IMG/VR virus record: IMGVR_UViG_2740892489_000001
DNA: 49,169 nt
DNA from: a virus
Lineage: Duplodnaviria; Heunggongvirae; Uroviricota; Caudoviricetes
Strand: one strand, 5' to 3'
Numbering within the stretch: position 1 is the stretch's first letter; every line of letters begins with the position of its first letter. This document shows positions 5,390-43,227 of this stretch, one piece after another. Below the pieces are notes generated by a model, which saw only the letters and a list, made by a program, of their open reading frames with translations, was not told the DNA's origin and searched no databases. Position numbers and translations under genes: made by a program.

Positions 5390-5490
5390 TGTTTTTTAAC
5401 CTCAACTCAGATTAAAATTCGTTTTGTTCAGTGAATGATCTTGCCGGATACACACTGTTCATAGCCTGCGCCATACGCAGGCTATTTCTT

Positions 5491-5767
5491 TCAGATTTCA
5501 CCTTTTAATTTCATTGCAATTAGAGTTGCCAGAAATTCGGCTTTTTTTTCTGCGGGCAGATTCTTTCCGATATGCACCAGGCACATTTTTTTTGACACCT
5601 TCATCAAGTGTTTTTACGTTGCCTGATGGACCATCGATATCAACCACAGTGAATGGGGTTTCTTTATTTTCTGTTTTAATTACGTAGCCAATGCGCTTTC
5701 CTTCCAGATTCACCTCGTGAACAATGTCATCGGTAGTTACAACAGTGGCTTCATAATTGGTAATCAT
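5491..5767 (-). CDS. racC: RacC-like protein; frame broken at T8 run 5586-5593
   Basis: MITNYEATVVTTDDIVHEVNLEGKRIGYVIK... N-terminus; expected C-terminus (MCLVHIGKNLPAEKK...) is in the adjacent frame. Confidence 0.6.
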
Positions 5768-5841
5768 GTTTTTCTCCTTAATTAAGGTTGAGCGAATACC
5801 TGCCATTTCTGGCATAAATTCAGTTTCGAATAGTCAATTAA

Positions 5842-5994
5842 TTAAAGTTCATGTGCCATCTGGTCTTTTTCGGCACAAGCTTCACTGCAATATTTTCTCG
5901 GTTCGTCTTTTGATAAAATCCCGTGCATGAAGTGAAGCATTCTTTCAATAGCTTTGCTTTCTTCAACGTCTTTTTTTGCAAAGGTGGTAAGCAC
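5842..5994 (-). CDS. YdaE-like small Cys-containing protein (GTG start assumed)
   Basis: Open frame ...ESKAIERMLHFMHGILSKDEPRKYCSEACAEKDQMAHEL between racC and kilR; start and frame uncertain. Confidence 0.3.
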   Translation of the reverse strand: MLTTFAKKDVEESKAIERMLHFMHGILSKDEPRKYCSEACAEKDQMAHEL

Positions 5995-6012
5995 ATTTTA
6001 TTTTCTTAGTCA

Positions 6013-6233
6013 TCACCATGACTCCGCCTTTACAGGTAAACCATCACGACCGAGGAAGACTTTAATCATGCGGTCAGTAATGCATGTTTTTGTGGTCAGG
6101 TTACGAATATATAGTTTTCGCTTTTTAATATTGTTTGCCGAGCAATATATGTCCGGCCTTCATGAAGAACATAATCGCCAGGAGTCACACACTGACGTGG
6201 TATTTCATCAGTTCCGAAGTGATGTGCAATCAT
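6013..6233 (-). CDS. kilR: KilR-like killing protein; frame appears broken near 6140
   Basis: [31 protein letters not shown] in one frame, ...[14 protein letters not shown] in the adjacent frame. Confidence 0.5.
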
Positions 6234-6675
6234 AATTATCTCCATTTTTACAAATGAACTTTGTTGATGCGGTGCCTGGTGCCTCCAGGTGACTGCAACC
6301 AGTTAACAATTACAGTCGGCTTTCCCACCCAAACCAATAAGGACTAACATGACTTTTAACTGTGCCACGTGCGCTTAGCCGCATTCACCGCATCACAAAA
6401 TTCACTTTAAAAAGGGCGGACATCAGCCGAACTTCAAGAAAAAAAACTGATGCCGCCAGGACTACACACAGCAATGTCGTTATTTACAACCGGAGGCGCA
6501 CTCCCACCATTTAAATTTAACAGACAAGACCGACTCTTTATGGATATCGGAAATGCGCCTTCGTGTTGTGCCCGGTTTTATTTCACCACCTCCGGGCTTC
6601 GGTGGTCTCGGCTATACCCCTACAGCGAGAGCTTGTGTTAACATTTCAATACCCTTACAGTTGAGAGTTATTGAT

Positions 6676-7164
6676 ATGTTGGATGTATTTACTCCATTGT
6701 TGAAACTTTTTGCTAACGAGCCACTCGAAAGACTTATGTATACGATTATCATTTTTGGTCTCACTCTCTGGCTGATACCGAAAGAGTTTACTGTCGCATT
6801 CAATGCTTATACTGAAATACCTTGGCTCTTTCAGATTATCGTTTTTGCCTTTTCTTTCGTGGTCGCCATTTCCTTCTCAAGATTGCGAGCACATATTCAA
6901 AAGCATTATTCATTACTACCAGAGCAACGAGTATTGCTTCGTTTATCTGAGAAAGAAATCGCTGTATTTAAAGATTTCCTTAAAACAGGAAATCTTATTA
7001 TCACTTCTCCTTGCCGTAACCCGGTTATGAAAAAATTAGAACGGAAGGGCATCATTCAACATCAGAGTGATAGCGCAAACTGTTCTTATTATCTCGTCAC
7101 CGAAAAATACTCCCATTTTATGAAGTTATTCTGGAACAGCAGGAGTAGACGTTTTAATCGTTAG
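6676..7164 (+). CDS. sieB: Superinfection exclusion protein B
   Basis: MLDVFTPLLKLFANEPLERLMYTIIIFGLTLWLIP..., hydrophobic N-terminus; ATG at 6676 inside the longer track ORF. Confidence 0.8.
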   Translation: MLDVFTPLLKLFANEPLERLMYTIIIFGLTLWLIPKEFTVAFNAYTEIPWLFQIIVFAFSFVVAISFSRLRAHIQKHYSLLPEQRVLLRLSEKEIAVFKDFLKTGNLIITSPCRNPVMKKLERKGIIQHQSDSANCSYYLVTEKYSHFMKLFWNSRSRRFNR

Positions 7165-7316
7165 CTTACTGTGTGCTTCTCCAACCATCGGCGCGCACCA
7201 GTTTCGGTTTTAAATGTTTTGCTTTTGGTATACGTCATGGCAGTGAACGTTCCATCCTGGTTGGGGAACACGCCGCACACCAGGGATTCGTTGTTGCCGA
7301 GGTCGATTTTTTGCAT
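7161..7316 (-). CDS. YdaF-like small protein (51 aa)
   Basis: Hand translation MQKIDLGNNESLVCGVFPNQDGTF...; below track length cut-off. Confidence 0.45.
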   Translation of the reverse strand: MQKIDLGNNESLVCGVFPNQDGTFTAMTYTKSKTFKTETGARRWLEKHTVS

Positions 7317-7326
7317 TTTGCGAATC

Positions 7327-7461
7327 TCACATCTTGTTGCTACGTATAGCGACTTCTGCCTGCCAGAGATCCCAGTCGTTGCTGCGTAAAGCCTGCACAG
7401 CCTGGTTGTAAGTGATACCGCAACAATCCATCAAATACTGAACTACTTCGTAATGCACCAT
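7327..7461 (-). CDS. YdaG-like small protein (44 aa)
   Basis: Hand translation MVHYEVVQYLMDCCGITYNQAVQALRSNDWDLWQAEVAIRSNKM. Confidence 0.45.
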   Translation of the reverse strand: MVHYEVVQYLMDCCGITYNQAVQALRSNDWDLWQAEVAIRSNKM

Positions 7462-7631
7462 CTTATCTATCCCCTTAACGCCGGGTGGCGGAACTAACTG
7501 CTGCACTGCAAAATTTGAATCCCGCCGTCATGTTCATACGCCTCGGGCTGGCTACTTAACCCCTGACCACTGCCTGGTAACTCGAAGTATTGCCCGGCGT
7601 TCTGTGGGGCGGGGTGGGTTGGTAGGTATAT

Positions 7632-7674
7632 AATGTACTTTGTGTTCATCATTGTAAAGTACTTTAAGTACATT
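7632..7674. promoter_or_regulatory. Left operator-like cluster of GTACT-core palindromic motifs
   Basis: AATGTACT, AAAGTACT and AAGTACATT within 43 bp downstream of racR; same motif recurs at 8195-8226. Confidence 0.35.
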
Positions 7675-7748
7675 TTATGTATAAAAAAATGAGACGGGAT
7701 AAAGTGAAGCACAAACCCGGAGGGGGACGCTACCGGATTTATGCTGGT

Positions 7749-8171
7749 TTAAGAGGCTTTTTTGTTTTTTTCTTTCGTGCTAACTCTTCGTAAATTGCAT
7801 TGTACTTCTGTTTTTTTCTCCTCAAGAGTTTTTAAAAGTTCATCTGTCTCACTGTCAGGGAGCTCGTCCAGAAGGTCAATGATGATTTTTTGTCTTGGAT
7901 TTAACTCCTGATAGAAACGTATCTGTCCACTTTCTTCTGTATCCTCTCCCAAAAGATAGGTTGGTGTTGTTCCAATGAGTGTTGCTAATTCCCTTAATTT
8001 CTCTCGGCGAGGAATTGTTTCACCATTAAACCATTTGCTAACCGCTTTTGGTGTTAATTTCATTCGACGGGCAATTTCTGCCTGCCTTCCATGTTGTTCA
8101 TAACCAGCGTTTTCACAGGCTAGCGCAAGCCTACTGGCGAACTCTTTACGCGCTTTATCTTCATGAACCAT
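7749..8171 (-). CDS. racR: Prophage repressor, XRE-type HTH (RacR-like)
   Basis: HTH-like segment AEIARRMKLTPKAVSKWFNGETIP; divergent from the Cro-like gene; C-terminus passes two A7 runs so the exact end is uncertain. Confidence 0.7.
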   Translation of the reverse strand: MVHEDKARKEFASRLALACENAGYEQHGRQAEIARRMKLTPKAVSKWFNGETIPRREKLRELATLIGTTPTYLLGEDTEESGQIRFYQELNPRQKIIIDLLDELPDSETDELLKTLEEKKTEVQCNLRRVSTKEKNKKAS

Positions 8172-8250
8172 AAGTTCAATGATATTCGCTCTTGAATGTA
8201 CTGTCAGTTCTGTTATAGCATGTACTCAAAGTTCACATTGTGAGGATGAT
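8172..8250. promoter_or_regulatory. Divergent promoter/operator region between repressor and Cro-like gene
   Basis: AATGTACT (8195-8202) and CATGTACT (8219-8226); possible -35 TTGAAT / -10 TATAGC for the rightward gene. Confidence 0.4.
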
Positions 8251-8505
8251 ATGAACCAGAAAACACTTGAAGATGTAATCAAAACTGTTCGCGTTTCTGT
8301 TGTGGCCGACGTTTGTGGTGTCAGCCAAAGAGCAATCTACAAATGGATGGATAACGGAAAATTGCCTCGCACAGAATATACCGGCGAAACAAATTACGCT
8401 GAAAAAATCGCTCATGCATCAAACGGATTATTTTCTGCCGATGCAATTTTAACTATTGGCAGAAATAAAACTACTACGAAAAAGCTGATGGGAGTTGATT
8501 CATGA
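8251..8505 (+). CDS. Cro/YdaS-like HTH protein
   Basis: MNQKTLEDVIKTVRVSVVADVCGVSQRAIYKWM HTH; GAGGA Shine-Dalgarno before ATG 8251. Confidence 0.6.
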   Translation: MNQKTLEDVIKTVRVSVVADVCGVSQRAIYKWMDNGKLPRTEYTGETNYAEKIAHASNGLFSADAILTIGRNKTTTKKLMGVDS

Positions 8506-8924
8506 AAATCAAGCATGAGCACATCGAATCAGTGTTGTTAGCCCTGGCAGCCGAAAAAGGGCAGGCGTGGGTCGCTAACGCAATTACTGAAGAATATCTG
8601 CACCAGGGGGGCGGCGAATTGCCCCTGGTACCAGGCAAGGACTGGAACAATCAGCAGAATATCTATCATCGTTGGTTGAAAGGTGAAACGAATGCGCAAA
8701 GGGAAAAAATTCAGAAACTGATCCCTGCGGTTCTGGCAATTCTTCCTCGCGAGCTGCGTCACCGACTCTGCATCTTCGATACCTTGGAACGCCGTGCATT
8801 ACTGGCGGCACAGGATGCACTGAGTACGGCAATTGATGCGCATGATGATGCAGTCCAGGCCGTTTACCGTAAAGCACATTTCAGCGGCGGCGGTTCTCCT
8901 AGCGATTCTGTCGTAGTGCATTGA
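8502..8924 (+). CDS. YdaT-like (CII-position) regulatory protein
   Basis: 140-aa ORF overlapping the upstream stop (ATGA); position as ydaT in Rac. Confidence 0.5.
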   Translation: MKIKHEHIESVLLALAAEKGQAWVANAITEEYLHQGGGELPLVPGKDWNNQQNIYHRWLKGETNAQREKIQKLIPAVLAILPRELRHRLCIFDTLERRALLAAQDALSTAIDAHDDAVQAVYRKAHFSGGGSPSDSVVVH

Positions 8925-9001
8925 TTGAAATTAATCGTACCGAACTGTTTTGTTCGGTATCAGTTAAATGTAACGCTGCGAGCGTTACAAGGTGAAAACA
9001 A

Positions 9002-9790
9002 ATGGCTTCAAACTGGATAAAGCTCGAAGTTATTACGCCGGATAAGCCGGAAATATTCAGGCTTGCTGAGATTCTGAATATTGATCCAGATGCCGCATTA
9101 GGGAAAGTCATTCGCTTCTGGGCATGGGCGGATCAACAAATGATAGACGGTAACGCAGAGTGTAACGCTCGAGGCGTTACAAAAAGTGCAATAGACCGTA
9201 TCACTTTTATGGCTGGTTTTGCTGATGCGTTAATTCAGGTTGGATGGCTGGTCGAAAGTGATGGAGTGCTTTCACTACCAAACTTTGAGCGTCATAACGG
9301 AAAAAGCTCGAAAAAACGGGCGGTTACAAACGAGAGAGTTACAAAAATACGCGAACTGAAGCGAAAAGGTAACGCTGCCAGCGTTACACAAACGGATCAA
9401 AAAGCGTTACCAGAGGAAGAGGAAGAGGAAGATATAAATACTGATCTCCCCCTAAATCCCCCTCGGCAAAAACGAGCGTCTAAACAATTCGAGCCGGAGG
9501 CCATTGCTCTGCCCGACTGGTTGCCAGAAACACTCTGGAATGAGTGGGTCCAGTTCAGGCAGGCATTGCGAAAACCGATTCGAACGGAGCAGGGCGCTAA
9601 CGGGGCGATACGGGAACTGGAAAAATTCCGCCAGCAGGGTTTTACCCCTGAGCAGGTGATTCGACACAGCATCGCCAATGAATACCAGGGCTTGTTCGCG
9701 CCGAAAAGTGTTCGGCCTGAGACGTTGCTCCGACAGGTTAACACTGTCTCGTTTCCGGACAGTGCGATCCCGCCAGGCTTCAGGGGGTAA
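9002..9790 (+). CDS. Replication initiation protein, O-like
   Basis: 262 aa with acidic linker EEEEEED; iteron-like repeats inside the coding region; followed by DnaC-like gene. Confidence 0.7.
   Translation: MASNWIKLEVITPDKPEIFRLAEILNIDPDAALGKVIRFWAWADQQMIDGNAECNARGVTKSAIDRITFMAGFADALIQVGWLVESDGVLSLPNFERHNGKSSKKRAVTNERVTKIRELKRKGNAASVTQTDQKALPEEEEEEDINTDLPLNPPRQKRASKQFEPEAIALPDWLPETLWNEWVQFRQALRKPIRTEQGANGAIRELEKFRQQGFTPEQVIRHSIANEYQGLFAPKSVRPETLLRQVNTVSFPDSAIPPGFRG
9149..9410. repeat. Iteron-like GTAACGC / GCGTTAC repeats (candidate ori)
   Basis: GTAACGC at 9150 and 9162, GCGTTAC at 9174 and 9404, palindrome GTAACGCTGCCAGCGTTAC at 9369-9387; similar palindrome at 8970-8988. Confidence 0.6.
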
Positions 9791-9796
9791 CTGACC

Positions 9797-10543
9797 ATGA
9801 AAAATATTGCGACAGGCGGCGTTCTGGAACGTATCCGCAGACTGGCCCCGCCACATGTAACCGCGCCATTCAGGACGGTGGCGGAGTGGCGCGAGTGGCA
9901 ACTTGCAGAAGGCCAGAAACGTTGCGAGGAGATCAATCGCCAGAATCGTCAGTTGCGGGTGGAAAAAATTCTGAATCGCTCCGGCATCCAGCCGTTGCAC
10001 CGCAAATGCTCGTTTTCGAATTACCAGGTGCAGAACGACGGCCAGCGATACGCGTTGAGCCAGGCGAAATCCATCGCCGATGAACTGATGGTCGGGTGTA
10101 CAAATTTTGCGTTTAGCGGAAAACCTGGTACCGGAAAAAACCATCTGGCGGCGGCTATCGGGAATCGCCTGCTGAAAAACGGTCAGACAGTGATTGTGGT
10201 TACCGTGGCTGATGTTATGAGTGCTCTACACGCCAGCTATGACGACGGGCAATCAGGCGAAAAATTTTTGCGGGAACTGTGCGAAGTGGATCTGCTGGTT
10301 CTTGATGAAATTGGCATTCAGCGCGAGACAAAAAACGAGCAGGTGGTACTGCACCAGATTGTTGATCGCCGGACAGCGTCGATCCGCAGCGTGGGGATGC
10401 TGACAAACCTGAACTATGAGGCCATGAAAACATTGCTCGGCGAGAGGATTATGGATCGGATGACCATGAACGGCGGGCGATGGGTGAATTTTAACTGGGA
10501 GAGCTGGCGCCCGAATGTTGGTCAGCCAGGAATTGAGAAGTAA
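9797..10543 (+). CDS. DnaC-like helicase loader ATPase
   Basis: Walker A GKPGTGKNHLAAAIG and Walker B LLVLDEIG. Confidence 0.85.
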   Translation: MKNIATGGVLERIRRLAPPHVTAPFRTVAEWREWQLAEGQKRCEEINRQNRQLRVEKILNRSGIQPLHRKCSFSNYQVQNDGQRYALSQAKSIADELMVGCTNFAFSGKPGTGKNHLAAAIGNRLLKNGQTVIVVTVADVMSALHASYDDGQSGEKFLRELCEVDLLVLDEIGIQRETKNEQVVLHQIVDRRTASIRSVGMLTNLNYEAMKTLLGERIMDRMTMNGGRWVNFNWESWRPNVGQPGIEK

Positions 10544-10565
10544 TTTTTACCGGGAGGAAATTTTA

Positions 10566-11291
10566 ATGGAGACCGTTTTTGACGCACTGAAAGCAATGGG
10601 AAAAGCCTCTTCCCAGGAAGTGGCAGCACGTCTGGGAATGACCCGGGATGAGGCGATTAACGAGCTGTGGAAACTGAAGCGTCGTGGGGAAGCTGATAAC
10701 AAGGGCCCGATGTGGTGGTTGACTCAAACCGACGAAAACGCATCTGTAGCACAGGCTTCTAAAGTGACAGCGCAAATGCTGATCGAGGCGATTGAACAGC
10801 ATGGCCCTAAAGCGGCTGATGAACTTGCACTGATATTCAGAATTACTTCCCGCAGGGTGAACTCATCGCTGGCTATGGCCATCAGCAAAGGTCGTCTGAT
10901 TCGCGTAAATCAGAACGGTAAATTTCGTTACTGCCTGCCGGACGGTAATTTACCAGCAGAGCCGAAAGTTGTATCGGTAGTGAAAACACCTGGTAAAGGC
11001 TTTCCTCAGCCAGCCGGTGTTGCGTTACCAGTACAGGAAGCGGCAACACAGGAAGAAATTAAAACAGATACTGTGGGGGACATTGTGCAGTCACTACCAT
11101 CGTTCACTGAAACGCGAGCCAATGACCTGATTATACCATCGCTGCAAATGGCAAACCGCGAACTGCGCCGGGCGAAAAGTTATGTCCAGAAGTGGGAGCG
11201 AGTCTGCGCCGCGCTGCGTGAGCTGAACAAGCACCAGGATATTGTCCGTCAGATTGTCGATTCCTCCAGTCGTATTGTGTCGGAAAAGTGA
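10566..11291 (+). CDS. Hypothetical protein with two winged-helix-like segments
   Basis: GGAGG Shine-Dalgarno 8 nt before ATG 10566; 241 aa. Confidence 0.5.
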   Translation: METVFDALKAMGKASSQEVAARLGMTRDEAINELWKLKRRGEADNKGPMWWLTQTDENASVAQASKVTAQMLIEAIEQHGPKAADELALIFRITSRRVNSSLAMAISKGRLIRVNQNGKFRYCLPDGNLPAEPKVVSVVKTPGKGFPQPAGVALPVQEAATQEEIKTDTVGDIVQSLPSFTETRANDLIIPSLQMANRELRRAKSYVQKWERVCAALRELNKHQDIVRQIVDSSSRIVSEK

Positions 11292-11307
11292 TTCTAGGGG
11301 AGGGCTT

Positions 11308-11731
11308 ATGGCAAAAGTATTAACACAGGAAGAGCGAGAAAAAAATTAAAGGGCAGATTGTTGATCTCGTACGCCAGAGTGAGCGAGAGACGTTACGACA
11401 ACTGGAAGCTAAAACAGGGGCAACCAGATATCTGATAAGTATTCTCGCCAAAGAGCTGGTTTCGAGTGGTTACGTATACAACTCTGGCTACGGGTTATTC
11501 CCGTCTGAGCAGGCACGTAAAGACTGGCAAAACGCCAGCAAAAAACTCTCGAGTGCAAAGTCGAAGGAACCGGTTATGGTTGATCCTGACCTTATCTGCT
11601 CGTTATCTGACGGAGAAATACGTCGTTACGACAGGCGTCATAATATAATTTGTAGTGAGTGCCGTAAAAGAGAAGTTATGCAGCGTGTACTGGCGTTTTA
11701 TCGGGGAAACTTTCAAGAGGTGCTGTTGTGA
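11308..11731 (+). CDS. Hypothetical protein; frame broken at A7 run 11339-11345
   Basis: ATG with GGGGAGGG Shine-Dalgarno; 13 codons then stop; removing one A gives a continuous 140-aa frame ending with CSLSDGE...CSEC. Confidence 0.4.
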
Positions 11732-11891
11732 GCCAAATTAATAATCGGAACTTGGTGAAGTGAAAGAGAAAGCATAACCCAAATCTGAATAATTAAATTC
11801 AGCACTGTGAATAAAATAGAGTCCTTAACCGGAGGAATTCCTGCACTCTCAAATCATCAGGAGGCCGCCCGAAAAGGCGGTGGAGATAATA

Positions 11892-12410
11892 ATGGAAATA
11901 ACTAAAGAACGATTATTGGAAATAGCAAATCTTAGTGATGGGGCATTAAGTGATGGGAGAATTATTTCTCCTGATGCTTATGAATCAGTTACAAGTATAG
12001 AAATAATAACGATGGCTAGGATGCTTCTTGCGCGATTCAAAAAAGAATATAAAAAACAGGTAGATAGCAATGCTAATATATATGATATTTTGGACGGTTG
12101 GGGAGCCTGGGCTGTAGCTGAAAATAGTTCTATTGATTGGCAGGAAATAGCTGATAAATATAAAAATGTTGTTCCTCATGGTAAAAAATCACGTCGTCAG
12201 TGCAGCAATGATGAAGGGGGTATAATTGATACCTGCATGTTGAGGCTTAAACAATATAAGATAGATGACTATGAGTTAATTATCGCTCATTTTGTTATGG
12301 GAGTTTCATTGCGTTGTTTAGCTAAGATAAACGAATGTTCAGATGGTAAAATAAGGAAAAAAATGCAAATGGCAATGGGATTTATTGCAGGTTGTATCTA
12401 TTACCGTTGA
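11892..12410 (+). CDS. Q-antiterminator-like protein (QuuD/Q-933W type) with N-terminal extension; AT-rich
   Basis: DGWGAWA...KSRRQC...IIDTCMLRLK...FVMGVSLRCL...CSDGKIRKKMQ resembles the Q family signature as recalled; GGAG 6 nt before ATG 11892. Confidence 0.55.
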   Translation: MEITKERLLEIANLSDGALSDGRIISPDAYESVTSIEIITMARMLLARFKKEYKKQVDSNANIYDILDGWGAWAVAENSSIDWQEIADKYKNVVPHGKKSRRQCSNDEGGIIDTCMLRLKQYKIDDYELIIAHFVMGVSLRCLAKINECSDGKIRKKMQMAMGFIAGCIYYR

Positions 12411-12416
12411 TTTTTT

Positions 12417-12437
12417 AAGGCGAGTTTCTCTCGCCTT
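12417..12437. other. Perfect 8-bp stem-loop between convergent genes (possible terminator)
   Basis: AAGGCGAG-TTTCT-CTCGCCTT, T6 on the 5' side only; not a canonical hairpin-plus-U-tract in either direction. Confidence 0.4.
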
Positions 12438-12440
12438 AAA

Positions 12441-13924
12441 TTAACTACAGTAACTATTGATTAAGTGAGAACTGAGCCAAGAGGTAATTGCATTCGTAGC
12501 ATGTTCATCAAGCATTGAGAATCCTAATATGATCATTATAAATGAAATCAGCAAAGTCAGAATCACAACGAATGTGGCTATAATCTGATAAGCTTTGTAT
12601 GCTTCTCTTAATGGTGTGACTGCAAGATTCTCATAGTCAGTATCATCAAGAAAACCATATAGTTTATCTCTCCAGACTAGCCTAGTATTATCAAGTATCT
12701 TAAAGTAATTTTTATTTATGAAGAGAGTTGTAACCTGAGATATAAAAATATATATAGATAACGCGAAGAACATATATGGGAATATGTTATTGGTTATATT
12801 AATCTTTGATGCGTCTAGCGCATATTTTATTGCAAATAGACTTATAACCAGAGCCAGATCTTTCCAAAGAGCGGATGTGATGTCTTTAGACTGACTTATT
12901 ATTTTTTGCGTGTCTTCAGCTAAGGTTTTCCTTAGATCGGACAGAGATTTAATAGTCTCTCTGCTGCTAGCGCGAATGTGGGCCTTATATAGTAATTTTG
13001 CTGACTCAAAGGCCATAGGGAGTTTTTTTTGGTAAACCCTCACAGAAGGATACATACTCTGGCCATTCTCGTGCTAACTCACTTGTGAAGAAAGTATGTT
13101 TGAGTTCAATCTCATTGCCCTCAATAAAGATCCAGTTTATTACAGTTTGTAAAACTGAATAGTCGGAAAGCAGAATGTCTGGATCTCCATAAATTAATTT
13201 TTTTGGTGGCTTTCCAGTTAAACAAATTGATTTCTTTTCATCTGCTAATAATTCATTAACGAGAGTGCGACAAAGCATATTGCAGGAAACTTGTAACCAT
13301 TTTTTGAAAAAGTTGTCCTCTGCCTCAGGCATTTTATAAAGTACCCAAGGAGCTATATCAGATGCAGGCATGAACTCACTAGAATAGAATTTAACGTAGC
13401 TCTGTAAATTGATTGAAGTTCGTACGGTTTCATTAGATTCAATTTTTTTCTGGAGCATGGTTCCATGGCTCAACAGAATATCCTAAAGTTTCAAATCCAT
13501 GTTTCAAACCGAGAATATTCACTTTATTGGTTATTGATACTAAATCATCATTGTGTAGAAAAACATTCCACCCTTCGAGCGTAAAAATATACCTGTTATT
13601 TTCGAATGCAATGCATTTTAGCGTAATGTTAAGTTTATCACCTTCACTGCATGACGATGGTTTTACTTCATCATTACAGTCATCTTTAACAGTAATTTCA
13701 ATCCAATTTGGTACGTTTTCGTAAACGTACTGCCAAAGAATGAGTGCATCTTTGTCCATTTTGGCAGAAATTAGAACGCGCGCAGAATCATTTTTTATTG
13801 ATTCTGATGCCAAAAATTCAGGGTCTTTCCTTGACGCCTGTATAGACTCATCGATTTTTTGAAGTATCGATGTCATCAGTAATAATCCTCGCAGTAGTAA
13901 CAATAATTTGTTTTCGCCCATCAT
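12441..13924 (-). CDS. Hypothetical protein with multi-pass membrane C-terminus; three track ORFs joined across homopolymer indels
   Basis: ORFs 13439..13924, 13006..13473 and 12441..13055 become one frame if T7 13443-13449 and T8 13023-13030 are each one base shorter; hydrophobic helices in last ~200 aa. Confidence 0.5.
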
Positions 13925-14907
13925 CTAAGTTTCTTATTTCTGGACGGTCATCTTCATTATAACTAATTACTACACTTTCTGCAGTTTCAATTTTTCGTCT
14001 TGGTGGTTTATGAATGCCATCTGCTTTTATAGTAAAGGATTCGCCTTCAATACCAGCATTTTTTGTTTGAGTTTTGAATGTGTTGAGAATTGGTGATTTT
14101 TCATCTAACGGCCCAAAAATGCTGGTCAATAACGGAGAAGCATCTTCAGGATTATATTCGAAATCAGCTCTGCTTAAAACTTCATATATTTTATTTACGC
14201 CGCTTTTTTGAATTGACTCTGGCAATAATTCTTTATGCCTTTTGAAGGTTATTTTCAGCGCATCAATAAGCTTATTGCAAAGTTCAATTTCAGAGTTGAC
14301 TCTTTTAACATTTAAGAAGCCTTTAAAATATCCTGAAATATTGGTTCTTTTACTCCTGTCTTTTACAATAACTTTCCCGCCTTTCCCACTTGGATCAAGT
14401 TGAATTAACGCTATTTTTTTGCATTGCCTCAGCTTTTTTTACGAAAGTTTCATGAAATCTTTCTAAAGTAGGCATTTGTTCTTCAGATAACTTTTCGTCA
14501 AGAACATAACGAACCACATCTTCATTATCGTATTTTATAATTGCATAGAATTTTTCCTTATCTGAAACCAATTCAAATAAGAAAAAGCATCCCATACTCG
14601 TGTTACCGCTAGAATGGTGTGACTGAAAATCACTGGCCAGTAGCTTCGATTGTTCTGTAAAACAATTAGCTTCAGCATCTGCTTTATCTCTAATGATACG
14701 CAGGATTCTTTCGGTATTTGAATTCTCCAGAAAAGTGAAAAGATTTCCTTTCAGTGAAGATTTGATACGTTCAAGAAAAAAATCCACATGCTGAACTGGT
14801 TTTATTTCTTTGAGAAGTGTCGGTGCTTCAAGATTCTTACCTACAACGTGAAAGATCATTTTATTAATGACTAAATTTTGTACGTCTTGTTCAGAAAGGA
14901 AACTCAT
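13848..14907 (-). CDS. NdpA/YejK-like (nucleoid-associated protein family) candidate; two track ORFs joined
   Basis: ORFs 14395..14907 and 13848..14225 fuse if T7 14414-14420 or 14434-14440 is one base shorter; motifs MIFHVV, GCFFLFELV...YAIIKYD, IQLDPSGKGGKVIVKDRSK recall the YejK family; GGAG before start. Confidence 0.45.
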
Positions 14908-14948
14908 CCTGACTCCATAATCAAGCAGATTAGAACTATGACTAGTCT

Positions 14949-14977
14949 AGTATATGCATCTTTTGGTGCGTACGCAA
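14949..14977 (-). promoter_or_regulatory. Candidate sigma70 promoter for the minus-strand island genes
   Basis: On minus strand TTGCGT-17 nt-TATACT, about 50 nt upstream of start 14907. Confidence 0.35.
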
Positions 14978-14999
14978 AAGTTCTTAAACTCAAAATGTT

Positions 15000-15236
15000 A
15001 TCGCGGATAGATCTTTGTAGAGTCAGTGATTGGCGCAGGTAGGTGGTAACAGCAGACAAATAGCTGCGGATACTTGAGGCTATCTGCCTCGGGCATGAAC
15101 ATCAAAGGCAGATAGAGAAAAGCCCCAGTTAACATTACGCATCCGGCAAGACGCTTAACATTAATCTGAGGCCAATTTCATGCTTTGCACATGTAGGTTA
15201 GCCTCTTACGTGCCGAAAGGCAAGGAGAAGCAGGCT
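15000..15236. promoter_or_regulatory. hok leader / putative sok antisense region
   Basis: Structured GC-rich leader typical of hok mRNAs upstream of the hok ATG. Confidence 0.4.
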
Positions 15237-15392
15237 ATGAAGCAGCAAAAGGCGATGTTAGTCGCCCTGATCGTCATCTGTTTAACCGTTATAGTGACGG
15301 TACTGGTAACGAGGAAAGACCTCTGCGAGGTACGAATCCGAACCGACCAGACGGAGGTCGCTGTCTTCACAGCTTACGAACTTGGGGAGTAA
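15237..15392 (+). CDS. hok: Hok/Gef-family type I toxin
   Basis: MKQQKAMLVALIVICLTVIVTVLVTRKDLCEVRIRTDQTEVAVFTAYELGE; in-frame upstream extension from 15180 (mok-like). Confidence 0.85.
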   Translation: MKQQKAMLVALIVICLTVIVTVLVTRKDLCEVRIRTDQTEVAVFTAYELGE

Positions 15393-15400
15393 GAGGACCG

Positions 15401-15418
15401 GCGGGGAGAAATCCCCGC
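15401..15418 (+). terminator. Stem-loop at hok 3' end
   Basis: GCGGGGA-GAAA-TCCCCGC immediately after hok stop. Confidence 0.45.
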
Positions 15419-15855
15419 AACCTCTGATGTATTATGCATCCTCAACGCAGCCACAGTTAACCTGATTGGCGGGTTTATTTCATCTGTAAATATATTTATA
15501 AAAATAATGCCCACGCACAGCATAAAACAAAAAGTATTACAGATAAAAAAGGAACGTAATGTGCAGATTTGTTGTTTTCCATATTTACTCACCTTAATAT
15601 GATTAACCCTGATAGGGTTGTTATTTCAGCGGTTTTCAAATGAGATATTATGGTGATCTGACAAATTTGCATAACATTAAAATTTAATTTGTTTAACCGC
15701 TTTTAATAATAAGCGTTGTTTGTATCCCAGCAATCTGTTGTTTGGTTTTTATTCCATTAAGGTGGGGGCTTTACACTGGAGCCAGTTTATTTATACTTCA
15801 TACGTCAGCCTGAACAACTGGCATCTGCTGCGCTGCGCCATCGAGAGATTGAGAA

Positions 15856-16455
15856 ATGGCGCATATACAACTGGTCAAACAAACCTCTTCCGGATTACTT
15901 CTCCCGGCGACGCCGGAGAGTTGTGATTTTCTGCATCAAATCAAAATAGGCGAGTGGATACACGCAGACTTTAAGCGTGTGCGTAACTACGCATTCCACA
16001 AGCGTTTTTTCAAACTCCTGCAACTGGGATTCGATTACTGGACTCCGGTCGGTGGGGCGATCACGCCTCGCGAACGAAAACTGCTGTCTGGTTTCGTTGA
16101 TTACCTGTGCGAATCAGTTGGTCGGGAACACACGCCAGCCCTGAGTGATGCCGCAGAGCAATATCTGAATACAGTTGCGACACGCAGAACCCGGGATACG
16201 GCATTGTTAAAGTCGTTTGAGGCTTTTCGCGAGTGGGTAACCATTCAGGCTGGATTTTACACCGAACATTTTTATCCGGACGGTAGCCATGGGCGTCGGG
16301 CGAAATCCATCGCTTTTGCGAATATGGACGAAACCGAGTTTCAGCAGGTTTATAAATCTGTTCTGAATGTGCTGTGGAACTGGATTCTGTTCCGTAAATT
16401 TTCCTCTCCGGAACAAGTCGAAAATGTGGCCGCGCAGCTGCTGGAGTTTGCGTAA
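15856..16455 (+). CDS. Nin-region phage protein (DUF1367-like by recollection)
   Basis: 199-aa ORF in the position of ydfU-type genes upstream of the late regulator. Confidence 0.45.
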   Translation: MAHIQLVKQTSSGLLLPATPESCDFLHQIKIGEWIHADFKRVRNYAFHKRFFKLLQLGFDYWTPVGGAITPRERKLLSGFVDYLCESVGREHTPALSDAAEQYLNTVATRRTRDTALLKSFEAFREWVTIQAGFYTEHFYPDGSHGRRAKSIAFANMDETEFQQVYKSVLNVLWNWILFRKFSSPEQVENVAAQLLEFA

Positions 16456-16745
16456 TGGTGGATTTACGTAAAGCGGCGCGGGGGCAGATGTGCACCGTCA
16501 GAATTCCTGGCTACTGCAATCACGATCCGGAAACGTCTGTGCTGGCGCATTACCGACTGGCGGGAACGTGCGGAACAGCGACAAAACCACACAATATGCA
16601 GGCGGCGATTGCCTGTAGCTCATGCCACGATCTAATCGACGGGCGGGTAAAAACCATCGATTACACCAAAGAAGAATTACGCCTGATGCATGCAGAAGGT
16701 GTTCTTCGCACACAAGAAATCTGGAGAAAGGAGGGATATTTATGA
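16455..16745 (+). CDS. YbcO-like Cys-rich protein (DUF1364 by recollection)
   Basis: CTVRIPGYCNHDPETSVLAHYRLAG...CSSCHD pattern, 96 aa. Confidence 0.5.
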   Translation: MVDLRKAARGQMCTVRIPGYCNHDPETSVLAHYRLAGTCGTATKPHNMQAAIACSSCHDLIDGRVKTIDYTKEELRLMHAEGVLRTQEIWRKEGYL

Positions 16746-16924
16746 TTTACCCAACGAATACAGGAAAAAGCGGAGAACACCTTCGTCTCACCACGCTGGA
16801 AAGTGTCTGGATTCAGGGAAAACTACGTATGTGGGGGCGCTGGTCGTATATTGGCGGCGGTAAGACGGGGAATATGTTCAACCAGTTGTTGGCCTCTAAA
16901 AAGCTGACAAAAAACGGCAATTAA
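16742..16924 (+). CDS. Hypothetical 60-aa protein
   Basis: GGAGGG Shine-Dalgarno before ATG 16742; overlaps upstream stop. Confidence 0.4.
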   Translation: MIYPTNTGKSGEHLRLTTLESVWIQGKLRMWGRWSYIGGGKTGNMFNQLLASKKLTKNGN

Positions 16925-16940
16925 CGAGGCGCTCCGGAGG

Positions 16941-17286
16941 ATGAAAAAAAGCAGGTCTGAACAAGTCTGAACTTGAGGCTTTTTTGCGGGATATGATTAA
17001 CGGTAAGCAAAAGAGCTGGCTGGCGCATTGTACTGATGCAGAGGCGTTATGTATTGATCGGGTCATAAGTGAGGTGCTGGCAGAGCATCCAGGATTGATT
17101 AGCGTCCTTCGGCAACGGTATGAGGGGCGGGGGATGACCAAACGCAAAATGGCTGAATTGCTAAATGATGCACACCCAGAGTGGTGTTTTAGCACATGCG
17201 AAAAGCGAATTGCTAATTGGTTGGCCGTTGCTGAGTATGCGCTATACATTCCCATGCGAGAATCATTCGCTCAAAAAACGGCTTGA
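16941..17286 (+). CDS. Hypothetical protein at the Q position upstream of the late region; frame broken at A7 run 16944-16950
   Basis: ATG 16941 with GGAGG Shine-Dalgarno gives 9 codons then stop; one fewer A yields a continuous 115-aa frame MKKAGLNKSELEAFLRDMINGK... Confidence 0.4.
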
Positions 17287-17532
17287 TTTTTTACGCATAA
17301 ACTGCTTCAATTTTGCTACGCTTCGCAAAGCTGTATCGCGAGGCGAATCAAGCGCAATTAAACTTTAATAGAACCCGCCATCGAGCGGGTTTTGTTGTTT
17401 CTGTGGTGTGATATCAGAAACGATATTTAATCATCGCCTTCAAAATAAATTTATTTATATGTTGTTGTATATATTTTAAGTGAAAGTGAATTATTCACAT
17501 AAAATAAAAACATATAAATAAATTTACATAAC

Positions 17533-17576
17533 TTGACGCAAACTGTTGTTGCGATTGGAATATTAAATCGTATCAT
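17533..17576 (+). promoter_or_regulatory. Candidate promoter upstream of tRNA genes
   Basis: TTGACG at 17533 after a very AT-rich upstream stretch (17440-17530); -10 element ambiguous. Confidence 0.3.
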
Positions 17577-17639
17577 CGAAAACGGTTCTGAGGGGGAACT
17601 CTTCTTTGAACGGTGATATCGCTCCCCTGAAGAACCAAT

Positions 17640-17715
<76 letters not shown>

Positions 17716-17718
17716 TAT

Positions 17719-17793
<75 letters not shown>

Positions 17794-18159
17794 GCATTTG
17801 AAACAAGCCTTATTGTATTACGGCACTGGCGTATTTTTTTTATTACGTGGGAGCAGGTTGTTTTGAAAAAGCATTCTGTTCTCTGGCTATGATTTGAGGC
17901 CGGGTGTAGCCTCAGTGCTGATTTTTTACGGCAGCAGAATGGTGCATTATCGGTGGAGATTTTGTATTTCCTGGCAGGGTCGGTGATGCATCATTCTGGT
18001 GTTGTAAATCGCACCACAGAGGCGCTCCTCAGTGCGAGGGTGGTTTAAAGAGTCGGTTTAGCGGGAAACCACAGTATCCATACAGCACGGAATACTTCGG
18101 GAGGCACCCGACGCCTCGGTTTAATAACAATTAAAAAATTCATCCCTTGCATTGACCAA

Positions 18160-18184
18160 CCGCCATATCTGGCGGTTTTTTTTT
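18160..18184 (+). terminator. Rho-independent terminator
   Basis: CCGCCA-TATC-TGGCGG followed by T9. Confidence 0.7.
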
Positions 18185-18574
18185 ATTCCTTTCTCAGGAC
18201 AAAAAAAAGACACGAGCATCCAGGAATACTCGTGGGACAACGTCCTTTAGATAGCAATTTGCGAGAGGGTGAAAAGTAGCGCGGTCGTCGGATTAAGACC
18301 GCGGGACAAAGTCCATGAAGAATAATAAGTATTGGCCCCCTTCTGGGGACATGTTCATACTACTAAGCTTCAGAAGTGGTTTAAATCATCAAATTAACCT
18401 TAATTTTCGATAAGTCTTATTTCATTTCTTTGCGCCACATCTGGCGCGCATCAAATAACGCCACGCAAAGGGCATCTGCGGATGCCGGTGCTTTTGACGG
18501 GGTGTTTTTTACGGGCCGCTGGTGGCCATTTTTTGTTTCCATTACACAGCGCCCGCATCTGCGAGGTGGGGGTT

Positions 18575-18790
18575 ATGAAATCCATGGATAAGTTAACAAC
18601 GGGTGTCGCCTATGGCACCTCCGCAAGCAGTGCTGGCTACTGGTTTTTACAGTTGCTCGATAGAGTAACTCCGTCACAGTGGGCTGCAATCGGTGTGCTG
18701 GGTAGTCTGGTTTTTGGCCTGCTGACGTACCTGACAAACCTTTATTTCAAGATTAAAGAAGATAAGCGCAAGGCTGCGAGAGGTGAATAA
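18575..18790 (+). CDS. Phage-21-type pinholin (S21-like), dual start MKSM
   Basis: [71 protein letters not shown], 71 aa. Confidence 0.85.
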
Positions 18791-19287
18791 TGCCTCCATC
18801 ATTACGAAAAGCCGTTGCTGCTGCTATTGGTGGCGGAGCAATTGCTATAGCATCAGTGTTAATCACTGGCTCAAGTGGTAACGATGGTCTGGAGGGTGTC
18901 AGCTACATACCATACAAAGATATTGTTGGTGTATGGACTGTATGTCACGGGCATACAGGAAAAGACATCATGCTCGGTAAAACGTATACCAAAGCAGAAT
19001 GCAAAGCACTCTTGAATAAAGACCTTGCCACTGTCGCCAGACAAATTAACCCGTACATCAAAGTCGATATACCGGAAACAACGCGCGGCGCTCTTTACTC
19101 ATTCGTTTACAACGTGGGTGCTGGCAATTTCAGAACATCGACGCTTCTTCGCAAAATAAACCAGGGCGATATCAAAGGCGCATGTGATCAGCTACGTCGC
19201 TGGACATATGCTGGCGGTAAGCAATGGAAAGGTCTCATGACTCGTCGTGAGATTGAGCGTGAAATCTGTTTGTGGGGTCAGCAATGA
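18790..19287 (+). CDS. Endolysin (lysozyme) with N-terminal signal-anchor-release segment
   Basis: Hydrophobic Gly/Ala-rich N-terminus then lysozyme-like region; start overlaps holin stop (TAATG). Confidence 0.85.
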
Positions 19288-19748
19288 ACAGAGTAACCGC
19301 GATTATCTCCGCTCTGGTTATCTGCATCATCGTCTGCCTGTCATGGGCTGTTAATCATTACCGTGATAACGCCATTACCTACAAAGCCCAGCGCGACAAA
19401 AATGCCAGAGAACTGAAGCTGGCGAACGCGGCAATTACTGACATGCAGATGCGTCAGCGTGATGTTGCTGCGCTCGATGCAAAATACACGAAGGAGTTAG
19501 CTGATGCGAAAGCTGAAAATGATGCTCTGCGTGATGATGTTGCCGCTGGTCGTCGTCGGTTGCACATCAAAGCAGTCTGTCAGTCAGTGCGTGAAGCCAC
19601 CACCGCCTCCGGCGTGGATAATGCAGCCTCCCCCCGACTGGCAGACACCGCTGAACGGGATTATTTCACCCTCCGGGAACGACTGGTAATGATGCAGGCC
19701 CAACTTGAAGGTGCTCAGCAATACATAACCGAACAGTGTTTAAAGTAA
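19284..19748 (+). CDS. Rz-like inner-membrane spanin subunit
   Basis: N-terminal TM helix then coiled-coil-like sequence; overlaps endolysin stop. Confidence 0.75.
19504..19689 (+). CDS. Rz1-like outer-membrane lipoprotein spanin subunit, embedded in Rz
   Basis: Lipobox LVVVGC, proline-rich [13 protein letters not shown], nested in the +1 frame of Rz. Confidence 0.7.
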
Positions 19749-19885
19749 AATCTTAACTACAATATGATTCATTTTGATGATTGTTTCATAAGGAACAGTG
19801 AAGTAAGATCTAAGATGAGTTAAATTTTATACAGTATAATCATAATATTGCAGCAAGGTGGTTATAATTGAAAGAATATTTAGAT

Positions 19886-21344
19886 ATGAATACATCTCAT
19901 GTAAGAGTTGTTACTCATATGTGTGGGTTCCTGGTTTGGCTCTATAGTCTTTCAATGTTGCCACCAATGGTTGTAGCATTGTTTTATAAAGAAAAAAGCC
20001 TGTTCGTTTTCTTTATAACTTTCGTTATATTTTTTTTGCATTGGTGGCGGAGCGTGGTATACAACTAAGAAATCTGGCATTCAATTACGTACCCGTGATG
20101 GGTTTATTATAATTGTAATGTTTTGGATTTTGTTTTCTGTTATTAGTGCATTCCCTTTATGGATTGACTCAGAACTTAATTTAACGTTCATTGATGCTCT
20201 GTTTGAAGGGGTTTCTGGAATAACAACAACAGGAGCAACTGTAATTGATGATGTTAGTTCATTACCTCGGGCATATTTGTACTATCGGTCACAGTTAAAT
20301 TTTATAGGTGGTTTAGGAGTTATTGTTCTGGCGGTTGCTGTATTGCCATTATTGGGTATTGGTGGTGCAAAGCTTTATCAGTCAGAAATGCCGGGGCCAT
20401 TTAAGGATGACAAACTCACTCCCCGCCTGGCCGATACGTCACGGACACTGTGGATAACTTATTCTTTATTAGGTATTGCTTGTATTGTCTGTTATAGACT
20501 TGCAGGAATGCCTTTGTTTGATGCTATTTGTCACGGGATTTCCACAGTTTCGCTTGGTGGTTTCTCAACTCATAGCGAGAGTATCGGATATTTTAATAAC
20601 TATTTGGTTGAGCTGGTGGCTGGTTCTTTTTCCCTGCTATCGGCTTTCAACTTCACTCTTTGGTATATTGTTATTAGCAGGAAAACGATAAAACCTTTAA
20701 TCAGAGATATTGAACTTCGTTTCTTTCTGTTAATAGCCTTAGGGGTGATCATTGTTACCTCTTTCCAGGTCTGGCATATAGGTATGTATGACTTGCATGG
20801 AAGTTTTATTCATTCGTTTTTTCTTGCCAGCTCCATGCTCACTGATAATGGTTTAGCTACGCAGGATTATGCAAACTGGCCCACGCACACGATAGTGTTT
20901 TTGCTGTTGTCAAGTTTCTTTGGGGGATGTATAGGTTCAACTTGTGGTGGAATTAAGTCACTTCGATTTCTTATACTTTTCAAACAAAGCAAACACGAGA
21001 TAAATCAGCTTTCTCATCCCAGAGCGTTGTTGAGTGTAAATGTAGGAGGGAAGATAGTTACAGATCGTGTAATGAGGTCTGTATGGAGTTTCTTTTTTCT
21101 TTATACTCTCTTCACGGTGTTTTTTATACTGGTGTTAAATGGTATGGGATATGATTTTCTTACATCATTTGCAACAGTGGCTGCATGTATTAATAATATG
21201 GGATTAGGTTTTGGGGCTACTGCATCGTCATTCGGAGTGCTTAATGACATTGCAAAATATTTAATGTGCATAGCTATGATTCTTGGTCGCCTTGAAATTT
21301 ATCCTGTTATTATATTGTTTTCAGGTTTTTTTTGGCGCTCCTAA
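19886..21344 (+). CDS. trkG: Trk potassium uptake membrane protein TrkG; frame broken at T8 run 20030-20037
   Basis: MNTSHVRVVTHMCGFLVWLYSL... N-terminus (ORF 19868..20068) and 408-aa ORF 20118..21344 join if the run is one base shorter. Confidence 0.85.
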
Positions 21345-21481
21345 TATATGGCTGATTTATAATTGTGAGTTTAATATTATATTGACTCACTCATTGATCC
21401 AATACCTAACTTTACCAGCAACACCTCCGCCCCCAGTAGCACTGGCTGCTGGGGTGCGTTTTATTCATAAAGCAAGGCTGT

Positions 21482-22270
21482 ATGAGCGAGAAATTAAAGA
21501 TAGTCTATCGCCCATTACAAGAATTGTCACCGTATGCGCACAACGCCAGGACGCACAGTACTGAGCAGGTGGCACAACTGGTAGAAAGTATTAAGCAATT
21601 CGGCTGGACTAATCCGGTGCTGATTGACGAAAAGGGCGAAATTATTGCGGGTCACGGTCGTGTTATGGCGGCTGAAATGCTCAAAATGGATTCTGTTCCG
21701 GTCATTGTTCTGTCTGGCCTGACGGATGAGCAGAAAAAGGCGTACCGCCTGGCAGATAATCGCCTACCGATGAATGCTGGCTGGGATGAAGATCTATTGC
21801 GGATGGAGCTGTCGGACCTAATCAATGCTGATTTTGATGTCTCCCTGACAGGCTTCGGCCCGACAGAAATTGATGAACTGTTGACGGATGTTTTGCCCGG
21901 TACAGGAAATAAGGAGGAGCCGTATACGACGAAAATTGATACGCCTGTTTATGAGCCGTCGGGCGGTAAACCGGATATCAGTGAACTGTACGACGATACG
22001 AAAACTCAGGAGCTGATCAGCCGGATACGTTCGGCGTCCCTTGATCCTGATATTGAGAAATTCCTCCTGTGTGCGGCAGAACGTCACACGGTGTTTAATT
22101 TCAGCAGAATTGCGGACTATTACGCTCATGCCCCCGCTGAAATTCAGTGCCTTTTCGAGGAGTCGGCGCTGGTGATCATTGATTATCAGCAGGCTATTGA
22201 AAATGGATTTGTCCGAATGACGCAGCGCATGGTGGCGATCATGCATAGCGGGGAGGAGGAATATGCGTGA
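21482..22270 (+). CDS. ParB-like nuclease domain protein (YnaK-like)
   Basis: N-terminal IVYRPLQELSPYAHNARTHS...GHGRVMAA resembles a ParB N-terminal domain. Confidence 0.6.
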   Translation: MSEKLKIVYRPLQELSPYAHNARTHSTEQVAQLVESIKQFGWTNPVLIDEKGEIIAGHGRVMAAEMLKMDSVPVIVLSGLTDEQKKAYRLADNRLPMNAGWDEDLLRMELSDLINADFDVSLTGFGPTEIDELLTDVLPGTGNKEEPYTTKIDTPVYEPSGGKPDISELYDDTKTQELISRIRSASLDPDIEKFLLCAAERHTVFNFSRIADYYAHAPAEIQCLFEESALVIIDYQQAIENGFVRMTQRMVAIMHSGEEEYA

Positions 22271-39687: not shown

Positions 39688-39747
39688 TGCAAAACATTTT
39701 ATGTGAAACCGCCTGCGGGCGGTTTTGTCGTTTATGGAGCGTGATGA

Positions 39748-42700: not shown

Positions 42701-43227
42701 CTAAAAATGCGGATATCAGTGGCAGTGTGAATGCGAACTCCGGGACGCTCAACAACGTTACGATAAATGAGAACTGTCAGATTAAAGGGAAACTGTCAGC
42801 CAACCAGATTGAAGGCGATATTGTCAAAACAGTGGGTAAGGCTTTCCCGCGGGACTCCCGGGCACCGGAGCGGTGGCCATCAGGAACCATTACCGTCAGG
42901 ATTTATGACGATCAGCCGTTTGACCGGCAGATTGTTATTCCGGCGGTGGCATTCAGCGGTGCTAAACATGAGAGAGAGCATACTGATATTTACTCCTCAT
43001 GCCGCCTGATAGTGAAGAAAAATGGTGCTGAAATTTATAACCGTACCGCGCTGGATAATACGCTGATTTACAGTGGTGTTATTGATATGCCAGCTGGTCA
43101 CGGCCACATGACGCTGGAGTTTTCGGTGTCAGCATGGCTGGTAAATGACTGGTATCCCACAGCAAGTATCAGCGATTTGCTGGTTGTGGTGATGAAGAAA
43201 GCCACCGCAGGCATCAGTATCAGCTGA
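39748..43227 (+). CDS. Host specificity / central tail fibre protein J
   Basis: 1159 aa, immediately after I. Confidence 0.9.

Follow-up and report, generated by a model that had tools for sequence, protein, structure and literature searches.

A candidate nucleoid-protein sensor and membrane-effector module against phages in a low-GC island of a Rac-type prophage of Escherichia coli

Type II PANGU, DS-1 and the operon of the island

PANGU is a class of two-gene systems whose YejK-like nucleoid-associated protein (NAP) detects the breakdown of the host genome that phages cause (Li et al., April 2026, bioRxiv 10.64898/2026.04.06.716658). In the Type II systems of that report, the NAP Pag2A is accompanied by Pag2B, which has an acidic, 'DNA-mimicking' (DMK) domain at the N-terminus that binds the NAP with a dissociation constant (KD) of 19 nM, and a transmembrane domain at the C-terminus. 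The Type II system of uropathogenic E. coli (UPEC), named PANGU-Ecu, protects against T4 and Bas34, and both genes are needed for it. According to the same authors, PANGU-Ecu displays abortive-infection behaviour with growth arrest at high multiplicity of infection (MOI), T4 mutants in denA (EndoII) escape from it, and its NAP fused to green fluorescent protein leaves the nucleoid upon infection. They further report that neither the single genes nor the pair are toxic and that the NAP activates the effector. Here we describe a two-gene operon of similar architecture, present in a low-GC island of a Rac-type lambdoid prophage of E. coli. The prophage is contained in a stretch of 49,169 nucleotides from a virus of the Caudoviricetes (IMG/VR record IMGVR_UViG_2740892489_000001), hereafter called the window.

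The second system of comparable architecture is DS-1, a validated anti-phage two-gene system of E. coli (DefensePredictor; DeWeirdt et al., Science 2026, PMC13092281). It consists of the YejK/NA37 protein WP_000355468.1 and of WP_000150292.1, a protein of ~400 amino acids (aa) with a hydrophobic C-terminus. The supplement of the same study lists WP_001586997.1, which is exactly the NAP of the island, as a 'Predicted novel defense gene' with a mean log-odds score of 8.42, the stringent cutoff of the method being 4. In the supplementary tables searched, this protein stands in the predicted list only and not among the validated systems. Our literature search for WP_001586997.1 and its partner WP_001586996.1 returned this entry for the NAP as the sole mention.

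Li et al. defined NAP operons by a match to the NdpA hidden Markov model (HMM) at E < 1e-10, a length of at least 300 aa, a gap of at most 40 bp and linkage to defence genes within 10 kb. For the island pair the corresponding values are E 1.2e-12, 352 aa and a 29-nt overlap, and linkage to DruE and DRT2 is seen in its relatives; the C-terminal transmembrane region expected of a Pag2B-type partner is represented by two hydrophobic helices. In its architecture, as described for those systems, the pair therefore matches Type II PANGU. Common to both are a NAP of the YejK/NdpA type, 300 aa or more in length, whose gene shares a compact two-gene operon with that of its partner, a partner that combines an acidic N-terminal domain with a hydrophobic or transmembrane C-terminal region as in Pag2B, an E. 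coli host, and links to mobile elements and known defence genes. However, the prophage context of the island pair (the Rac slot and the convergent Q gene) is absent from the published description, in whose text the word 'prophage' occurs 0 times. With DS-1 the pair shares the order of an NA37-domain protein followed by a partner with a hydrophobic C-terminus, although the DS-1 NAP is 391 aa long and carries an N-terminal zinc ribbon whereas the island NAP has 352 aa. An earlier note on this DNA, made from the sequence alone, had suggested that the block holds an undescribed module. This can no longer be maintained, because the architecture has been published as Type II PANGU, DS-1 has been validated and the exact NAP is among the DefensePredictor predictions. 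No new class of system is thus revealed here; the class is already described and the protein already flagged computationally, and the locus itself would be already known if it is identical to the published PANGU-Ecu.

The sensor candidate, which is Pag2A-like, is encoded on the minus strand at positions 13848–14907 (WP_001586997.1, 352 aa) and belongs to the NA37/YejK family of nucleoid-associated proteins. Its match to Pfam NA37 (E 1.2e-12, 48.3 bits against a cutoff of 24.6) covers residues 17–334 of 352. An AlphaFold2 model built from 37 homologues has a predicted local distance difference test (pLDDT) score of 86.8, and in the PDB it is significantly similar to one entry only, that of E. 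coli YejK (9be2, E 2.8e-9, probability 1.00), to which it aligns over the full length at 14% identity.

The effector candidate, which is Pag2B-like, is encoded on the same strand at positions 12441–13876 (WP_001586996.1, 477 aa), and intact copies of it exist elsewhere. The intact protein falls in no family of Pfam, PADLOC, NCBIfam or PHROGs, and library scans of the open reading frames (ORFs) of the window and then of the intact proteins recognised NA37, Q and Hok alone. Sequence searches of the PDB with single proteins and with profiles gave nothing relevant, and no relative of the effector was found there by sequence. The AlphaFold2 model of its 85%-identical homologue P0002 (pLDDT 86.0) consists of an alpha/beta domain at residues ~1–270, long helices at 277–355 and C-terminal helical hairpins at 364–404, 411–454 and 457–476. 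Hydrophobic helices at ~360–387 and ~425–457 are both present in 34 of 36 homologues, the first of them in all 36. The N-domain carries a net charge of -12 (isoelectric point ~5), a value which describes composition only and not surface electrostatics or DNA-like shape; over the 36 homologues the mean is -11.8 with a range of -3 to -19. The family is moderately large, with 86 clusters at 90% identity in a word-indexed search and, in an exhaustive profile search covering 1.84 billion representatives, 652 clusters at 50% identity (E ≤ 1e-3), nearly all of 450–500 aa.

Together these genes make up a minus-strand block of 2467 bp (12441–14907) which is convergent with a Q-like gene. The earlier note had seen such a block of ~2.5 kb without structural or replication role, and both the extent and the lack of any structural, replication or lysis role are borne out. 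It had also treated the block as multi-genic, but the five ORFs present in the window correspond to two genes in the annotation of E. coli strain 201609, which carries the same DNA; there, the end of the NAP gene overlaps the start of the effector gene by 29 nt. In the window the reading frames are broken by one additional T in T-runs, twice in the effector gene (13023 and 13443) and once in the NAP gene (14414). These frameshifts, by which two genes are split into five ORFs, raise the alternative that the module and its neighbours are true pseudogenes in this strain and encode nothing functional. Such decay is quite improbable given that all three insertions are +1 insertions in A/T runs of at least seven, that the same type of error pervades the whole window, and that the 29 full-length copies of the block are at least 99.6% identical, both genes being intact in the annotated examples examined.

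Over 16.5 kb the window differs from strain 201609 by 20 indels and only 6 substitutions, and 17 of the 20 indels are +1 insertions in A/T homopolymers that shift the frame of many unrelated genes across the window. Examples of indels relative to this 99.84%-identical reference lie at 5347, 5586, 5971, 6439, 7763, 7811, 11339 and 13023, and further at 13443, 14414, 16909, 16944, 17834, 18176, 18201 and 20030. Because of this excess of indels and the recurrence of one error type throughout, the insertions look like artefacts of long-read sequencing or assembly, and readings of the window that are based on its ORFs need correction accordingly. On the same ground we rejected the views that the five ORFs form a block of many genes or that they are pseudogenes, and we read both genes of the operon as intact.

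Upstream of the NAP gene, still inside the island, a putative promoter and ribosome-binding site of the operon can be read from the sequence (14908–14977, minus strand). The candidate promoter comprises TTGCGT (14977–14972), a 17-nt spacer and TATACT (14954–14949), and a candidate Shine-Dalgarno sequence GGAG lies 7 nt before the ATG at 14907; the putative promoter falls below the threshold of a consensus scan. Since the operon opposes both early and late transcription of the prophage and seems to be served by a promoter of its own, transcription from that promoter in the lysogen is probable, as far as can be inferred.

A candidate sensor of genome damage and its conserved linkage

The association of the two genes is not a peculiarity of this prophage. 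In almost every readable context of the effector family, an NA37-type gene lies directly upstream with overlapping ends. The overlap is the same 29 nt in our loci L003–L010 and L013–L015, 23 nt in L018 and 11 nt in L020. In Citrobacter the pair adjoins a tyrosine integrase, and in Sphingomonas the two genes overlap. In a Serratia prophage remnant the pair faces, in convergent orientation, a Q gene of PF06530 with 46% identity to the Q of the island. In Sodalis (L013) it adjoins an integrase and the Druantia gene DruE (PADLOC, 1946 bits). A metagenomic lambdoid prophage (L014) carries a 62%-identical pair between a late Q gene on one side and a type II methyltransferase, holins and a lysozyme on the other; the methyltransferase is adjacent to the pair, and DRT2 is found 4.5 kb away in the same prophage. 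DruE in Sodalis and DRT2 in L014 are known defence genes within 10 kb of a pair, while in the window itself the sole nearby exclusion gene is the prophage's own sieB.

More distant members show the same arrangement. In the Thiobacimonas phage vB_ThpS-P1 (KT381864.1; L020, 752–3011) a homologue of the effector (23% identity) and a NAP-like partner (hhalign probability 99.4%) are located next to the CI repressor gene. This is a sequenced temperate phage of an alphaproteobacterium, in which both genes of the pair are annotated as hypothetical. Upstream of the remote family member P0326, a fragment aligns to the C-terminus of the NAP (hhalign probability 89%). The effector family also occurs on eleven large plasmids, and on the three closest of these (Pantoea) the neighbouring gene is annotated as a nucleoid-associated protein. 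The sole exception to the linkage is a 611-aa member (L019, 594–2429) with no NAP gene upstream; it bears an extra C-terminal extension of ~165 aa and lies beside a dndB-E/PAPS-reductase phosphorothioation cluster. As the pair stays linked across Citrobacter, Sphingomonas, Serratia, Sodalis, the L014 prophage, a phage and plasmids, it is a self-contained mobile cassette of prophage moron sites, integrative islands and defence neighbourhoods.

Taken together with the architecture, we consider it likely, with a probability of about 70%, that the locus is an anti-phage module made of a NAP sensor and a membrane effector. Most likely, it would act as an abortive-infection system that senses degradation of the host genome. 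In the lysogen, the YejK-like NAP would sit bound to the host nucleoid. An incoming lytic phage that degrades the host chromosome, as T4 does with EndoII (denA), would set the NAP free, and the freed protein would then bind the acidic, possibly DNA-mimicking N-domain of its partner. The C-terminal helical hairpins of the partner may thereupon damage the membrane, by which the infected cell and the phage in it would be stopped.

A membrane protein with C-terminal helices could also block DNA entry or another early step without killing the cell, with the NAP as a regulator or cofactor. Superinfection exclusion of this kind would suit a prophage in which exclusion of the SieB type is already encoded, and membrane proteins for exclusion are frequent products of lambdoid morons. 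However, abortive-infection behaviour, including arrested growth at high MOI, has been published for the system with this architecture, and a strictly co-inherited cytoplasmic DNA-binding partner is more in keeping with a sensor and its effector than with a block of entry, which leaves exclusion an unlikely reading. Of the two functions that the earlier note had offered, superinfection exclusion or abortive infection, the latter is therefore the better one.

NA37/YejK being a bona fide nucleoid protein family, it is also conceivable that the NAP, tethered to the membrane, organises, silences or partitions the AT-rich DNA of the element itself. The presence of the module on large plasmids and the lack of a model for it in PADLOC would agree with such a housekeeping role. 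We nevertheless find it improbable. The pair is a small self-contained cassette in unrelated elements, beside Druantia and dnd; the slots in which it resides are occupied, in sister prophages, by DRT2 or a weakly RexB-like pair; isogenic Rac prophages lack it; and the NAP has a DefensePredictor score of 8.42.

Several points weigh against a functional defence module. Both genes are frameshifted in the window, and should these frameshifts be genuine, what this strain carries is a dead module. The step that activates Pag2B is unresolved in the published system (bioRxiv 10.64898/2026.04.06.716658). Homology to DS-1 was not detected, neither for the NAP (BLASTP E 3.5) nor with the profile of the partner (hhalign probability 0.15%). 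The test of effector acidity was one of compositional net charge and not of the shape of a DNA mimic, and fold searches with the effector model gave only generic helical bundles and no solved analogue. Finally, the defence-system HMM scan proposed in the earlier note, run with PADLOC-DB v2.0.0, gave no match with E ≤ 1 to any of the three intact proteins (Q-like, NAP and effector).

The proposed module resembles lambda RexAB and other abortive-infection pairs of prophages in being prophage-encoded, probably expressed in the lysogen, and composed of a putative cytoplasmic sensor and a putative membrane effector of small to medium size by which the infected cell would be stopped. In contrast to RexAB, to which there is no sequence relationship, the sensor here would be a nucleoid protein and not RexA. 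The parallel extends to a sister prophage which has a weakly RexB-like protein together with DUF6731 in the same position.

The island and its slot in the prophage

The low-GC mosaic island that harbours the operon occupies positions 11715–15057 (3343 bp) in the DUF977-hok slot of the Rac-type prophage. Its borders were set by alignment to the Rac prophage of E. coli 042, which is collinear but without the island. Homology to the 042 prophage stops at 11714, placing the left border (11714/11715) 17 nt upstream of the DUF977 stop codon, and restarts at 15058, giving the right border at 15057/15058. The comparison with a Rac-like prophage lacking the block, which the earlier note had recommended, thus did define the insertion boundaries, and it replaces the limits of 11750–15700 given there.

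The AT-richness noticed in that note is confirmed by a run of 1-kb windows from 11501 to 15000 with GC contents of 0.34–0.38, against 0.45–0.54 in both flanks. With 0.351, the island has the minimum GC among windows of the same length in the 49-kb sequence (mean 0.474, standard deviation 0.049), only 0.2% of them being equally low. The three genes of the island are uniformly low in GC (Q-like gene 0.345, effector 0.349, NAP 0.337). The core block is found in 29 of 5426 complete E. coli genomes, ~0.5%, all copies being full-length and at least 99.6% identical; many of the carriers are human isolates, urine isolates among them. Such rarity, together with near-identity where the block is present, is typical of accessory defence cargo. 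Either a uniform GC or a conserved core module would have spoken against the idea of an accessory island; the GC is not uniform and the block is confined to those 29 genomes, and the evidence supports an accessory, horizontally acquired low-GC island. The cargo is under erosion in some lineages: in strain E01 (L021) a deletion by IS1 runs from within the effector gene as far as the tail-fibre genes, and IS421 or ISKpn26 insertions are seen near or inside the block in several other carrier genomes.

No flanking direct or inverted repeats were found at the ends of the island. Site-specific insertion and transposition were rejected on this basis, and the absence of repeats at the borders fits mosaic recombination between lambdoid phages. 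Since the pair lies directly behind the late Q gene both in L014 and in Serratia, the most economical account is a recombination that brought a segment of 'Q + convergent cargo' from a lambdoid phage of low GC into the DUF977-hok slot of Rac, which would also explain the two Q-type genes of this prophage. In this the block is like the lambdoid morons behind Q (lambda bor, stx), which are likewise self-contained cargo of foreign GC adjoining the Q antiterminator. In L014 and Serratia, too, the pair is located between the late Q and the lysis genes; in the window, by contrast, Q and cargo have come to stand upstream of hok and of the nin-like genes.

The gene convergent with the operon is a Q21-family antiterminator-like gene at 11892–12410 on the plus strand (172 aa, WP_001586995). 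The presence of a Q-like gene, as the earlier note had proposed, is well borne out by PF06530 (E 1.8e-33, residues 66–173) and by phrog_79, 'anti-termination protein Q-like' (E 5e-33). The second Q-type gene, DUF1133 (~16742–17286), occupies the canonical late position before the tRNAs and the lysis genes and scores weakly on PF06530 (27.1 bits). The island copy is not in the position of a late antiterminator: its stop codon is 30 bp from the convergent gene, and the lysis genes are 6 kb downstream, behind DUF1133. Copies of ~87% identity in ~65 other genomes are followed by different convergent cargo. The additional Q of the island most likely came along as a passenger when the segment recombined.

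Folding of the 30-bp convergent junction between the stop codons of the Q-like and effector genes predicts a strong hairpin at 12414–12440, with an 11-bp GC-rich stem and a minimum free energy of -18.9 kcal/mol (z -4.95 against shuffles). A canonical U-tract after the stem was found on neither strand, and the hairpin was accordingly rejected as a canonical bidirectional intrinsic terminator; any role as a terminator is putative.

The right border of the island is immediately followed by a hok/sok type I toxin-antitoxin locus at 15058–15392 on the plus strand, identified by Rfam RF01794 and PF01848. The sok match (RF01794, 99.4 bits against a gathering score of 59) covers 15068–15242, and the Hok ORF at 15237–15392 matches PF01848 with E 2.6e-21. 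The earlier note had counted this locus as part of the AT-rich block. The locus is indeed present, but it adjoins the island as backbone: it begins exactly where backbone homology to 042 restarts, its GC content is 0.50, and part of the flanking backbone (the DUF977 end and the hok region) is matched in 4802 of 5426 complete E. coli genomes, compared with 29 for the block. Hok/sok was therefore rejected as cargo of the island. The immediate vicinity of a type I toxin-antitoxin locus, together with a candidate membrane-active toxin and its tightly linked partner, could suggest that the pair is itself an addiction module, similar to a toxin-antitoxin system, which stabilises the prophage jointly with hok/sok. 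This is very improbable, as thousands of genomes have hok/sok but not the pair and, in the published systems, neither the single genes nor the pair are toxic and the NAP activates the effector instead of neutralising it.

In related prophages the DUF977-hok slot is filled by QueH, by DUF7167 with small ORFs, or by DUF4406. In the Rac prophage of E. coli 042 (L011, 6611–7276) it is the epoxyqueuosine reductase QueH that stands in place of the island. Other prophages have DUF4752 and the 87%-identical Q-like gene in the slot, followed by a different convergent pair. In strain 504838 (L002, 5662–7071) this pair, behind the 87%-identical Q-like gene, consists of DUF6731 and a 158-aa protein with a weak match to RexB (E 1.5e-3), and it may be an uncharacterised RexAB-like module. 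In L014 the slot (15968–18315) holds DRT2 (PADLOC Drt2, E 7e-203), a validated defence system, and a protein with an 8xMP domain, so that, with the NAP pair in its Q-lysis slot, this prophage bears a defence cargo at each of two moron sites. QueH, DUF7167, DUF4406, a weakly RexB-like pair and DRT2 as occupants support the view, taken in the earlier note, of a variable lambdoid moron and anti-phage hotspot.

The window as a whole is an essentially complete Rac-type lambdoid prophage of E. coli, extending from int to the tail fibres. Over the first 5.4 kb it corresponds to intR-xisR-rcbA-ralR-recT-recE of strain 201609, positions 5294–21804 are 99.84% identical to the segment racC-kilR-sieB-ydaT-ydaV ... 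essD-rrrD-trkG of the same strain, and positions 21676–44307 are 98% identical to its head and tail genes. Collinearity with the 201609 prophage ends at ~44307, beyond which the window continues to 49169; this distal tail-fibre region (44307–49169) varies between otherwise near-identical prophages. A second low-GC stretch at 19500–21500 (0.38–0.40) is trkG by the reference annotation, a potassium-transporter gene sited between the lysis and head genes. The region 38000–45500 is GC-rich (0.56–0.62) and maps to the tail genes L/K/I/J.

Implications for lambdoid prophages

Convergent placement directly behind a Q antiterminator gene is common to the E. coli Rac prophage, Serratia and L014. A more far-reaching proposal would be that this placement is functional, that the lineage of the pair forms a separate cluster unrelated in sequence to DS-1 and possibly also to PANGU-Ecu, and that the effector N-domain is a new fold. 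We consider this combination rather unlikely. If it were true, antiterminated transcription through Q upon induction would run antisense over the operon and shut the abortive-infection module off, and this read-through would give the prophage a built-in self-immunity to its own defence cargo.

The present analysis places a candidate NAP-sensor/membrane-effector pair in the element that naturally carries it, a Rac-type prophage that appears to be complete, and thereby provides a native construct for asking what a type II-like effector does at the membrane. The prophage context raises the questions of whether induction of a prophage with nucleases of its own (RecE, RalR) sets off its putative genome-damage sensor, and of how convergent Q-driven transcripts interplay with a defence cargo expressed in the lysogen. 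In lambdoid phages, the DUF977-hok and Q-lysis slots emerge as sites that exchange cassettes, among them DRT2, a weakly RexB-like pair and the NAP pair described here.

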